Shown here: piece after piece, positions 4,779 through 7,793 of the stretch
Layout of the letters: every line of letters begins with the position of its first letter
How positions within the stretch are numbered: position 1 is the first letter of the stretch
NCBI GenBank assembly: GCA_038217285.1
Contig: JBBQPO010000218.1
Span: 1-10,561 of the forward strand
Direction: 5' to 3'
Origin: Chthonomonadales bacterium
Lineage (GTDB): Bacteria > Armatimonadota > Chthonomonadetes > Chthonomonadales > Chthonomonadaceae
Length of the DNA: 10,561 bases
Translations under genes and position numbers: made by a program
Notes under the pieces: model-generated
Told to the model about the DNA's origin: nothing
Seen by the model: only the letters and a program-made list of their open reading frames with translations
Database searches by the model: none

Positions 4779-5573
4779 TTAAGGAATTTGATTGCCGGGG
4801 ATGTCCACCGTGACTTTGCCGCAGCCCGACACATTTGTCAGGGGCGAACCGTCTGGGACCGGATTCCAGGCGGCCCAGAGTGAGCCGTCCGTCTTGCTCC
4901 AGTCATAGCCGGGGAACTTCTTTAGTCCGGCGTTGGTCGAGTGGCCTCCTGCAGAGGTGCCTTGCTTGGTGCCGCTCTCATAGGCGGTGCCTTTGACATG
5001 TCCGTCCGCATAGAGGAAGTTGCCCTGTCTGTTGTGACGCCAGGCGGTTTCGCTCTCGGCATCGTTCACGGAACACCAGTTCCAGATCGTTTTGTCGTTC
5101 TGAGAGCAGTTGTCGCGCTCGGTAAGGTAGATCGTATTCGCGGGTTTGGGAATGGCCGCCAGGGTTGGCGGGGGCGCATTGTTGGGGCACCAGTTTCCGC
5201 CCATGTTACCGGGCATGGAAAAGGAGCGAACGGCGCCTGCCGTGCCTGCCGTGAGGTCGCTGGGACATCCGGACACGAAGTTGTTCTTGACGTAGGGTTG
5301 AATAAGGCGGTCCCAGGACAGGTCGAAACCCTGCGAGTCCCGATTTGTCACAGATACGTTGCCGGTATGCCAGGGCACGAGTTGCTCGTCATAGTCCTGG
5401 GCATACATCAGTAATCCGATTCCCATCTGTTTGAGGTTGGAGACACAGGAGATCTTTCGGGCCTGTTCTCGTGCCTGTGCAAAAACGGGAAACAGAATGG
5501 CGGCCAGAATCGCGATAATGGCGATTACGACCAGAAGTTCTATCAGGGTAAAACCTTTTTTCTTGCAGTTCAT
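4779..5573 (-). CDS. Prepilin-type N-terminal cleavage/methylation protein, DUF1559 (SBP_bac_10)-like, with H-X9-DG motif
   Basis: [44 protein letters not shown]....MYAQDYDE is the canonical type IV pilin-like leader of this family. C-terminal [13 protein letters not shown] is H-X9-DG. SD AAGGAG upstream (5581-5586 on -). Confidence 0.93.
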
Positions 5574-5629: not shown

Positions 5630-5851
5630 TTATTTGCCCTGGCCTATATCAGGCGGCGGTTTTGAGCCGGGTTCAGCCCCTGAGTAGCCGGCTTTACTGG
5701 CCTGGTCCGACGTCAATGCGGCAGGATGTCCGGCACCGGCGCCCGGGTAGCTGGGCTTGTCGAAGTTGGAATGCCAGAGGAAAAACCCTACTCCGGCCAG
5801 TGCACAGACAACGACGGCGATGACAACGCCCGGATGCATCTCTTTTTTCAT
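5630..5851 (-). CDS. Small single-pass membrane protein (73 aa), probably co-transcribed with the prepilin gene
   Basis: ATG preceded by SD-like AAAGGGGG. N-terminal MKKEMHPGVVIAVVVCALAGVGFFLW TM helix followed by a Pro/Gly/Ala-rich tail. Same strand as, and 56 nt upstream of, the prepilin gene. Confidence 0.75.
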   Translation of the reverse strand: MKKEMHPGVVIAVVVCALAGVGFFLWHSNFDKPSYPGAGAGHPAALTSDQASKAGYSGAEPGSKPPPDIGQGK

Positions 5852-5923
5852 TTTTTACCCCCTTTCTATTTTCCCTTTCTGACTAGATCATGGAGACATT
5901 TGCTTGCCAGCATAATCACGCGT

Positions 5924-5952
5924 AGTATACCATAAACCCTGATCGAAAACAA
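5924..5952 (-). promoter_or_regulatory. Putative sigma70 promoter for the small-protein/prepilin operon
   Basis: On the - strand: TTGTTT (5952-5947), 17-nt spacer, TATACT (5929-5924), with an extended -10 TG (TGGTATACT). Confidence 0.6.
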
Positions 5953-6065
5953 CAGCAGATGCTATATTTACGCCACAGAAATCATTTCCTGCGCTATAGG
6001 AATCGTGCTGTGTGCCACAGAACCCGCATCCGGAACAAACTGCCATCGCGCATAGATGCGCAACG

Positions 6066-6116
6066 AAATGGAACACACTCAAATGAAACACTCCCTTCTC
6101 GTTTTGTGGGTATAAT
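6066..6116 (+). promoter_or_regulatory. Putative promoter of the ankyrin gene: perfect -10 with tandem direct repeats over the -35 region
   Basis: TATAAT at 6111-6116 with no consensus -35. AAATGGAACACACTC (6066-6080) is directly followed by AAATGAAACACTC (6081-6093). Confidence 0.5.
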
Positions 6117-6118
6117 GA

Positions 6119-6245
6119 GGGTGCGCGTGTAGGGCGCACCCGTGTCCGCGGGCAGGGCCGAGCCCACCTTCACCTTCGATTTGTTTACCACTACCTTCTT
6201 TCTGCCTGGCAGAGCGGACAACAGGCGCTAGGAAAGGAGGTCGTT
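6119..6245 (+). ncRNA. Candidate structured cis-regulatory 5' leader RNA (SD-sequestering hairpin plus possible pseudoknot)
   Basis: GGGTGCGC/GCGCACCC hairpin (6119-6141). TGTCCGC (6143-6149) is complementary to GCGGACA (6214-6220). ACCTTCTTTCT (6193-6203) pairs with GGAAAGGAGGT (6231-6241, includes the SD). GCCTG (6204-6208) pairs with CAGGC (6222-6226). Confidence 0.55.
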
Positions 6246-7793
6246 ATGACCACGACATCTCTGCCTGCTCTCCCCAGCCTGGAACAACTCAAACACCAGG
6301 CCAAGGACCTCGTCAAACAGTTTAAGGCGCACAGTCCCGAGGCGATACGCCGGGTACAGTCTCATCTGCCCCGAGCCACCGGCGTTCCCACGGAATCCCT
6401 CTCCGCTACGAAATTGACACTCAGCGAAGCCCAGTTCGTTCTCGCCCGTGAGTATGCGTTCCCCAGTTGGCCCCGCCTCAAGCGCCATATCGAGACGTCT
6501 CAGCCGGATCAGGATGCCGCGCTCGAAGCCTTCAAGCGCGCGGTTCAGGAGGGAGACAGCCGAAAGCTCCGCACATTACTGCGCACCTATCCGACGCTGA
6601 AAGCCCAGATCGATGCCCCACTGTTCTCGTTTGACTCTCCGGCAGTCTTAAGTGCCGCGAGTCGGAACGATAGAAAGATGATGGAGGCGCTGCTGGAGCA
6701 TGGCGCGGACATCAATGGCAGAAGTCAATGGTGGGCCGGAGGGTTTGGCGTCCTGCCAAACAGTGATCCGGAATTCGCCGCCTATCTTGTCGAGCGCGGT
6801 GCGGTGGTGGATGTGTGGGCTGCGGCGGGAATGAAGCGTCTGGACCGCCTGGAAGCGCTGCTTAGAGAGGAGCCCTCTCTCGTGAATGCGCGGGGCGGAG
6901 ACGGCCAGAGTCCGCTGCATTTCGCGGCGTCGGTCGAGGTCGCCCAGTTCCTACTGGATCATGGAGCGGAGATCGACCTGCGTGACATCGACCATGGCAG
7001 CACACCGGCGCAGTGGATGGCGGCGGATCGGCCGGAGGTCTGCCGGTATCTGCTCACGCGGGGCGCGGAGCTCGACATCTTCATGGCAGTACAACTTGGC
7101 GACGTCGAATTGGTCCGGCAGGCGCTCGCCGCCGATCCCGACAGCCTTCATGCCATTGTCGGTCAGGGCAAACTCACCTCGGGCGCATCGAACGGCGGCC
7201 ATATCTACATGTATACGCTCCGGAACGGTCACAGCCCTCTCTATCTCGCCGCAGAGTTGGGCCATAAGGAGATCTGCCGCCTGCTGTCAACGCAGAGTTC
7301 ACCGCTGGAGAGGCTGCTGGCCGCCTGCCTGAGTGCGGATGAGGCGACCATTCGGGCCGCCCTTGCAGAGAACCCGAATGTCGTCCGATCCCTTCCCCCG
7401 GAGCAGATGCGGCTGATTGCGGATGCGGCCTGGGCGCACAAGACCGAGACGGTTCGTTTGATGCTTCAGATCGGGTTCGACATAGAGGCGCGAGGAGACG
7501 ACGATTCCACGGCGCTGAACCGCGCCGCCGTGCGTGGTTTTGCGGATCTAATCGAGTTGTTGCTGGCGAACGGCGCCTCTCCGGAAGCGAAGAACGCATT
7601 CGGCGGCACGGCGTTGGGCGCTTGCCTATGGGGCGCGGAGAACTTCTGTGATCCGGACGGGGACTATGCCGCCTCGGTCAAGAGACTGCTGGCCGCCAGC
7701 GACCCCCTTGCGGATGTCCGCTATCCCAACGCGAACAAGGCTGTCAATGCGGTGCTGCGCCGCTATCTGCAACAGAAGGCCGTCACACCCTGA
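6246..7793 (+). CDS. Ankyrin-repeat protein with N-terminal LPxxPSLEQLKxQAK...LSEAQFVLAREYxFPSW domain
   Basis: Strong SD AAGGAGGT at 6234-6241. Ankyrin motifs (LLEHGADIN, GDGQSPLHFAA...LLDHGAEID, GHSPLYLAAELGH, DDSTALNRAAVRGFADLIELLLANGA, FGGTALG). No signal peptide, so probably cytoplasmic. Confidence 0.92.
   Translation: MTTTSLPALPSLEQLKHQAKDLVKQFKAHSPEAIRRVQSHLPRATGVPTESLSATKLTLSEAQFVLAREYAFPSWPRLKRHIETSQPDQDAALEAFKRAVQEGDSRKLRTLLRTYPTLKAQIDAPLFSFDSPAVLSAASRNDRKMMEALLEHGADINGRSQWWAGGFGVLPNSDPEFAAYLVERGAVVDVWAAAGMKRLDRLEALLREEPSLVNARGGDGQSPLHFAASVEVAQFLLDHGAEIDLRDIDHGSTPAQWMAADRPEVCRYLLTRGAELDIFMAVQLGDVELVRQALAADPDSLHAIVGQGKLTSGASNGGHIYMYTLRNGHSPLYLAAELGHKEICRLLSTQSSPLERLLAACLSADEATIRAALAENPNVVRSLPPEQMRLIADAAWAHKTETVRLMLQIGFDIEARGDDDSTALNRAAVRGFADLIELLLANGASPEAKNAFGGTALGACLWGAENFCDPDGDYAASVKRLLAASDPLADVRYPNANKAVNAVLRRYLQQKAVTP

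Follow-up and report, generated by a model that had tools for sequence, protein, structure and literature searches.

What is the role of the short, apparently structured stretch that separates a perfect TATAAT box from an ankyrin gene on contig JBBQPO010000218.1 of a Chthonomonadales bacterium (Armatimonadota; GenBank assembly GCA_038217285.1)? The contig was analysed over 10,561 nucleotides (nt), a stretch that we call the window throughout, and the gene in question (6246-7793, + strand) encodes 515 residues, with an N-terminal domain at about residues 5-85 followed by ankyrin repeats. Judged by comparison and folding, the sequence in front of this gene is probably a conserved, pseudoknotted cis-regulatory leader RNA that locks the Shine-Dalgarno (SD) sequence, and one member of a large uncatalogued family.

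All of the elements concerned lie on the + strand. The promoter (6087-6116) combines the perfect -10 box TATAAT (6111-6116) with a weak -35-like AACACT (6087-6092) over an 18-nt spacer, and is followed by P1, a hairpin of 8 base pairs (GGGTGCGC, 6119-6126, with GCGCACCC, 6134-6141) whose 7-nt loop GUGUAGG (6127-6133) can pair with CCUUCAC (6167-6173) in six of seven positions, the remaining one being U.U, to give a pseudoknot that we term PK1. The 5' strand of P2, UGUCCGC (6143-6149, with a conserved core GUCCGC at 6144-6149), leads directly into the junction J2/3, GGGCA (6150-6154), and the mini-hairpin P3, GGGC-CGA-GCCC (6155-6158 with 6162-6165, plus a conserved A6166). Beyond a variable linker (6174-6192), in which neither sequence nor length is conserved across leaders, stands the P4 hairpin (6193-6241). 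Its lower stem (ACCTTCTTTCT, 6193-6203, with GGAAAGGAGGT, 6231-6241) pairs the anti-SD ACCUUCUUUCU of the RNA with GGAAAGGAGGU across the entire SD, GGAGG (6236-6240), six bases 5' of the ATG at 6246; its upper stem, as read from the sequence, joins GCCUG (6204-6208) to CAGGC (6222-6226). The 13-nt loop (6209-6221) holds the 3' strand of P2, GCGGACA (6214-6220), which is complementary to the 5' strand. The TATAAT box and helices P1 to P4 had been pointed out by a first-pass annotation of the window, and each can be read directly in the sequence at these positions.

Relatives of the leader can be followed outwards from the window's own genome, in which a DNA search recovered a second, diverged copy (G000:C199:1798-1948, minus strand) lying 3' of a perfect TTGACA-17-TAAAAT promoter and 5' of a 65-codon open reading frame (ORF). 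The sequences of its P1, P3 and P4 are unlike those of the window, and their pairing is retained. At this locus (G000:C199:1600-1948, minus strand; L002/L060) the ORF corresponds to the first two thirds of the N-terminal domain (N-domain) described below and ends at TGA; it could represent a shortened paralogue or a pseudogene whose leader is still intact and whose promoter is perfect. Just upstream, a possible tRNA-like stretch was noted by eye.

Further copies came from a DNA search of the 42 genomes of the window's taxonomic family, and 16 leaders were aligned (A1) and used to build a covariance model, R1, which holds P1, P3 and P4 only and no pseudoknots. R1 gave 44 matches in 21 of the 42 genomes of the family, with up to nine per genome (E <= 0.01). 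It matched over its full length in 24 of 68 genomes belonging to the order, in 34 of 151 genomes in an even sample of the phylum, and in 13 of 151 genomes from the phylum to which an Acidobacteriota record belongs (E <= 1e-4, counting the query genome); these counts are lower bounds, because genomes were sampled and R1 was trained on a single order, and the related genomes among them are not mutually independent. A degenerate pattern describing the 3' part, run over one genome per species, returned at least 120 stretches, and of the 80 that were examined with R1, 65 matched across the whole model (E 3e-32 to 1e-9), one matched in part and 14 gave no match. Going by their record titles, the 65 listed matches fall into about ten phyla: 32 Acidobacteriota, 12 Actinomycetota (among the matches listed, carriers include isolates of Actinomadura, Rugosimonospora, Peterkaempfera and Actinopolymorpha), 6 Gemmatimonadota, 4 Planctomycetota, 2 Chthonomonadales, 2 Pseudomonadota, 3 named 'uncultured bacterium', and one each from Dehalococcoidales, Lentisphaerales, Baltobacteraceae and Eiseniibacteriota. 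The leader is about 130 nt long across this family, and in the window's genome and related genomes its copies always lie on the strand of the gene, one per N-domain gene.

The evidence that carries the fold comes from an alignment of 102 leaders to R1 (A6), in which the structure was counted with all helices and both pseudoknots. Standard pairs fill 91.3% of the cells, a share that drops to 80.8 +/- 0.3% after column shuffling and to 38-51% if the 3' partners are moved by 1-3 columns; changes occur on both sides in 33 of the 36 pairs, and none of 500 shuffles matches the observed value on any of five measures. Individually, P1 has 86% of its cells paired with changes on both sides in all five modelled pairs, P3 98% (97.8% to one decimal) with four of four, lower P4 94% with nine of ten, upper P4 99% with four of five, P2 99% with five of six, and PK1 73% with six of six. 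The same covariation picture is seen in an order-level set (A2, 54 rows) and a cross-phylum set (A5, 66 rows). Every helix that the first-pass annotation had taken for real structure, P1 to P4, is kept and covaries in the 102 leaders.

Some points weigh against so confident a view of the fold. The window sequence alone proves nothing about it: the minimum free energy fold of 6119-6250 includes P1 and P4, and its energy of -51 kcal/mol is ordinary for the composition (shuffles -46.4 +/- 3.7, z -1.27), with 22 of 200 shuffles folding at least equally well. In addition, the alignments A2, A4, A5 and A6 were fitted to P1, P3 and P4 of R1 and lean towards these helices, and the pattern used to pick the A5 loci already specified parts of P4 and of the P2 3' strand, such that the conservation of those columns in A5 is partly selection.

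The pairing of P2 and PK1, on the other hand, is independent of the model, because both were left out of R1. P2 recurs as GUCUGC/GCAGAC, GUCCGU/ACGGAC, GUCCGG/CCGGAC, GUCCAC/GUGGAC and AUCCGC/GCGGAU, and, judged from the aligned leaders, the long-range P2 pseudoknot is real. PK1, which joins the P1 loop to the bases immediately 3' of P3, takes such different forms as UAAAGU/ACUUUA, AUUGAG/CUCAAU, ACGCAU/AUGCGU and AUGCACU/AGUGCAU. When partners were swapped between leaders, the longest helix between loop and flank fell from a mean of 4.65 for the true partners to 3.70 +/- 0.12 for permuted ones, and 0 of 5000 permutations reached the observed value. PK1 had been missed in the first-pass annotation; of the two further anti-SD-like copies noted there, the first (CCUUCAC, 6167-6173) turns out to form the 3' side of PK1 and the second falls in the unconserved linker.

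The spacing of these elements is likewise conserved. In 126 of 131 leaders precisely two bases, of whatever identity (AA, 6220/6221, in the window), separate the 3' strand of P2 from the 3' strand of upper P4, and a fixed spacer of free sequence points to a geometric constraint, with P2 and upper P4 formed simultaneously. J2/3 reads GGNNA in relatives, its two middle bases being free, and the core that is near-invariant across about ten phyla comprises GUCCGCGG, A-GGG...CCC-A-CC and CUUUC-N-GCCYG...GCGGAC..CRGGC. The linker between PK1 and P4 holds an additional hairpin of about 22 nt, GUGUCCUC...GAGAACAC, in L051, L052, L060, L068 and L087, which is an optional insertion in one subgroup.

The leader is also fixed in its position relative to the promoter. 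A sigma-70-like promoter (score >= 8 of 12) was found in 85 of 141 family members, compared with 14.7 of 141 in mononucleotide shuffles, and in 83 of those 85 the -10 box ends between 3 nt before and 2 nt after the first model position. Because the -10 box ends at the model start, we infer from promoter position that P1 lies at or adjoins the 5' end of the transcript.

At the opposite end of the leader, the SD core has a median pairing probability of 0.987 across 131 leaders, as compared with 0.64 when the upstream part is shuffled, and the anti-SD tracks changes of the SD from leader to leader (e.g., CUUAC...GAAGUU). The SD-sequestering hairpin and loop-pairing pseudoknot named in the first-pass annotation are both borne out by this pairing probability and by the near-complete pairing of P2. 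The anti-SD of the window is one base off ACCUCCUUUCU, a sequence that occurs once in the genome, where it directly follows the conserved 16S-end motif, and which we take to be the 16S rRNA 3' tail. The differing base (U6197 in the window) is a wobble position, read as U.G in 68, C-G in 25 and U-A in 6 of the 102 leaders, and the SD that it faces is extended (GAAAGGAGG), with about 10 nt of 16S complementarity. On the computed pairing, the leader locks an unusually long SD with a near-copy, made a little weaker, of the anti-SD tail that the ribosome itself carries. Its expression platform overlaps the conserved structure: by computation the covarying anti-SD lies on the SD, and the P2 pseudoknot includes the P4 loop.

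The family is attached to one kind of protein. The ORF directly after nearly every leader opens with a domain of about 85 residues that reads LPxxPsLEqLKxQAKdLlK ... LsDAQlVIAREyGFxSW, and a profile made from an alignment of this N-domain (A3) matches the ORF start after 140 of 145 non-redundant RNA matches, a test that is partly circular for A2, the source of A3, and not so for A4 (27/27) or A5 (61/64). Of the five RNA matches that lack the domain, three are themselves partial and one has its ORF cut at 21 codons; the fifth is a separate case. Recurrence of such leaders before LPxxPxLEQLxxQAK-domain genes in other soil bacteria, suggested in the first-pass annotation, is seen in many phyla. 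In the reverse direction, the window's genome has exactly two N-domain ORFs and the RNA precedes both; in five related genomes it precedes all 25 genes that have upstream DNA (three more fragments sit at the ends of contigs), in the phylum sample 47 of 50 genes, two of the 47 only with filters off, and in five genomes of other phyla 11 of 13. The leader would appear, from this two-way comparison, to be strictly linked to one protein family, as is expected of an autoregulatory leader. Five N-domain genes are natural exceptions, showing no detectable leader even with filters off: G028:C32:30272-30535, G028:C2:13801-14043, G124:C155:8385-8624, G205:C1:5137484-5137714 and G208:C1:4880787-4881041.

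The C-terminal parts of these proteins vary. Among 46 downstream proteins scanned, most carry ankyrin repeats and others leucine-rich repeats (LRR), HEAT repeats, CarboxypepD_reg, DUF4287 with AHSA1, or nothing recognisable; no enzyme or transporter is found among the 46, which have only the N-terminal domain in common and do not indicate a common metabolite behind the controlled genes. In a large protein collection the commonest partners of the domain are LRR proteins of about 645 residues and ankyrin proteins. Among the closest homologues, whose names point to Chthonomonadales, is 'Ankyrin [Chthonomonadaceae bacterium]' at 82% identity; in the window protein itself the repeats begin at about residue 135 and the first 130 or so residues have no Pfam match. 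In some proteins the N-domain stands in tandem duplicate (P0004, P0018, P0044; G006:C323, G048:C161, G076:C182, G112:C4), and it therefore behaves like a repeatable module and not like a signal peptide.

The N-domain itself is basic, with a median isoelectric point of 9.6 and seven conserved K/R columns, and its members in A3 are 22-67% identical to one another. A profile search of the PDB returned chance-level rows only and no relative by sequence, and comparison with NCBIfam gave only sub-threshold matches to ankyrin repeats. The AlphaFold model consists of four helices (mean predicted local distance difference test score, pLDDT, 74), and no convincing structural relative emerged from fold searches with it (Foldseek E 4.5 and VIA Z 3.9 at best, the latter with a root-mean-square deviation of 5.2 over 66 residues).

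No catalogued RNA corresponds to the leader. The whole window has no match in Rfam 15 at gathering thresholds; 5850-6400 searched at E up to 10 gives three chance-level rows, the best at 16.6 bits against a gathering score of 35, and a search with 20 members of other phyla (E up to 0.1) gives a single row, at 22 bits against 291, in agreement with the earlier suggestion of an undescribed element. Full-text searches of the literature collection covered found no description of the leader, and a term search of the main texts of three surveys, PMC2864571 (Weinberg 2010), PMC5737381 (Weinberg 2017) and PMC11109978 (Narunsky 2024), found none either, although the PDF and Word supplements of these may list further motifs. 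Four core strings of the leader are absent from four supplementary files of PMC2864571, and the Rhodopirellula-1 motif of that survey, which has no Rfam entry, is unrelated to the leader on the consensus seen in the passages of its published alignment that were compared. An SD-sequestering leader is in itself a known type of element; as a family, this one appears new.

It nevertheless displays individual features of several known systems. Like the preQ1-II, preQ1-III, SAM-II and SAM-V riboswitches, it is a short 5' leader in which pseudoknot formation is coupled to SD occlusion, and in preQ1-III the SD lies, as here, within a separate downstream hairpin region. The leader differs from these four in having no Rfam match at E up to 10, another consensus and two pseudoknots; its SD is locked by a mimic of the 16S tail in a hairpin of its own, the loop of which docks on the 5' part, and its genes are associated through one protein domain rather than a metabolic pathway. 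The ZTP (pfl) riboswitch, RF01750, is likewise built of two sub-domains, which a variable-length linker connects and a long-range pseudoknot bridges; however, the Rfam model does not match, conserved nucleotides and gene context are different, and the 3' sub-domain of the leader is itself the expression platform. The leaders of rpsO (S15) and other ribosomal-protein genes are structured, sometimes pseudoknotted, tied to one protein family and active on translation initiation, and the RNA and N-domain described here are nearly inseparable too; yet the N-domain is not a ribosomal protein and has no known RNA-binding fold, and the present RNA extends over about ten phyla among the matches listed with its core nearly fixed. 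Thermometers of the fourU and ROSE types also place a U-rich anti-SD on the SD with wobble pairs, whereas the leader is much more stable, carries an extra covarying domain with two pseudoknots and is conserved in sequence across phyla.

The likeliest role for the leader is that of a translational lock joined to a sensor domain, and we would picture its operation as follows. Transcription would start a few bases 3' of the -10 box, which would place P1 at the 5' end. The 5' part, consisting of P1, the P2 strand GUCCGC, J2/3 (GGNNA) and P3, is closed on itself by PK1 and joined through the variable linker to the 3' part, P4, whose loop sequence GCGGAC docks on GUCCGC to form P2. Docked in this way, the folded 5' part could clamp P4 and exclude 30S subunits from the SD; if docking is lost, the perfectly complementary 16S tail could outcompete the wobble-weakened lower stem. 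Two negative results count against a switch: RNAalifold proposed no alternative helix on the 102 leaders, and no conserved helix that would free the SD was found in the aligned leaders. With no such helix conserved, the on state is probably merely an undocked, breathing P4. The translational switch of the first-pass annotation is upheld by computation as regards SD occlusion, and the switching itself we infer; the pairing GGCAG/CTGCC, which was to free the SD, turns out to be specific to the window, as relatives read GGNNA on the 5' side and C[A/U]GCC on the 3' side. The idea that J2/3 and P3 (GGAAAGGG) act as an SD mimic to free the SD was dropped: the middle bases of GGNNA vary freely, changed anti-SDs such as those of L112 and L116 (AUGC/GCAU) are not accompanied by a matching change, and RNAalifold gives no such helix.

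As to what would release or set the lock, our leading guess, for which we would claim somewhat less than an even chance, is that the encoded protein's own basic N-terminal domain acts on the leader in feedback. We make this guess because RNA and domain are almost never found apart, whatever the C-terminal repeats and across phyla. Near-obligate coupling in both directions to one domain is the pattern of autoregulated RNA-binding proteins. Several observations pull away from feedback by the protein: conservation of the RNA core far exceeds that of the protein, a pattern more usual among aptamers that bind universal metabolites; Pfam finds in the N-domain only weak matches, seen in 8 of 30 members, to the N-terminal region of Glyoxalase_8 (best E 9e-4); and the Foldseek and VIA searches reveal no recognisable RNA-binding fold in it.

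The same conservation is what could be expected of a new class of metabolite- or ion-sensing riboswitch, in which the 5' part and the P4 loop form an aptamer, the ligand stabilises docking and so shuts the SD, and the N-domain proteins act in a process linked to that ligand. This proposal comes second, at a chance little below that of feedback by the protein and likewise short of even. Core nucleotides are nearly invariant over about ten phyla while the proteins diverge to the identities given above, the pseudoknots and conserved junction bases resemble known aptamers, and a covarying structure with changes in nearly all of its pairs is coupled to an SD-sequestering helix that would serve as expression platform. 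Known riboswitch classes, however, usually control several unrelated families linked by a metabolite, whereas this RNA is associated with a single protein domain, near-obligately in both directions, and a gene context that offers no enzyme or transporter among 46 proteins suggests no ligand.

A simpler device would be a constitutive translational damper, whose fold keeps output low and whose 5' part only strengthens the lock or shields the 5' end against degradation. The stability of P4 (predicted at -20.8 kcal/mol for the hairpin in isolation) and the lack of a conserved alternative helix speak for such a damper and against a switch, and near-obligate coupling to one gene family would suit proteins that need to be scarce. 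Nevertheless it is unlikely, in that a plain hairpin would be sufficient; the covariation of two pseudoknots, the constant spacer of 2 nt and the unvarying junction bases, all maintained across phyla, point instead to a specific three-dimensional recognition surface, and an SD with some 10 nt of 16S complementarity held by a conserved G.U suggests a balance that can be tipped. That G.U wobble, together with the U-rich anti-SD (CUUUC), is reminiscent of thermometers of the fourU type, in which the anti-SD/SD helix would melt with temperature; but P4 is far stabler than typical thermometers, the elaborate 5' part and its docking are unnecessary for melting, and the carriers span very different habitats and phyla, all of which makes a thermometer very improbable. 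Damper and thermometer alike are made less likely because the tertiary design is elaborate and covarying. We give scarcely any credence to the view that there is no functional RNA here and that the conservation reflects an upstream coding extension or a repeated mobile sequence. A frame is open from 6087 to 6246, yet it contains no ATG, GTG or TTG before 6246, linker lengths are free and changes in the helices compensatory, the promoter ends just 5' of P1, and the copies always share the strand of the gene, one per N-domain gene.

On balance we lean towards a new, phylum-spanning class of RNA in which a double-pseudoknotted sensor docks on the loop of a hairpin that mimics the duplex of 16S tail and SD, in response to a specific effector that may be a small molecule or the N-domain. 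To our knowledge, leader RNAs that are widespread and deeply conserved and yet uncatalogued are now rare, and the remaining orphan riboswitch candidates are mostly narrowly distributed. The present leader occurs in roughly a tenth to a third of the sampled genomes of two phyla, and in about ten phylum-level groups among the matches listed. With a well-determined fold, two pseudoknots and a clear read-out in SD occlusion, it is ready for work at the bench. It is also tied to a large bacterial family of repeat proteins (ankyrin, LRR, HEAT) whose shared N-domain lacks an assigned function or fold, and the identity of the effector would explain both the RNA and the proteins. If the effector is the N-domain, this would be a new RNA-binding module, and the leader would be a mimic of its cellular RNA target. 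The copy of the 16S 3' tail with its conserved wobble offers in addition a testable design principle for tunable competition with the ribosome.

Elsewhere in the window, on the minus strand, a 73-codon ORF (5630-5851), which has a strong SD (GAAAGGGGGT) and whose product is hydrophobic over an N-terminal stretch, lies directly upstream of a DUF1559/N_methyl gene (4779-5573) on the same strand. As read from the sequence, this ORF probably encodes a small membrane protein that is co-transcribed with the DUF1559/N_methyl gene. The presence of the latter in a Chthonomonadales (Armatimonadota) genome means that DUF1559 is no safe marker of planctomycetes.

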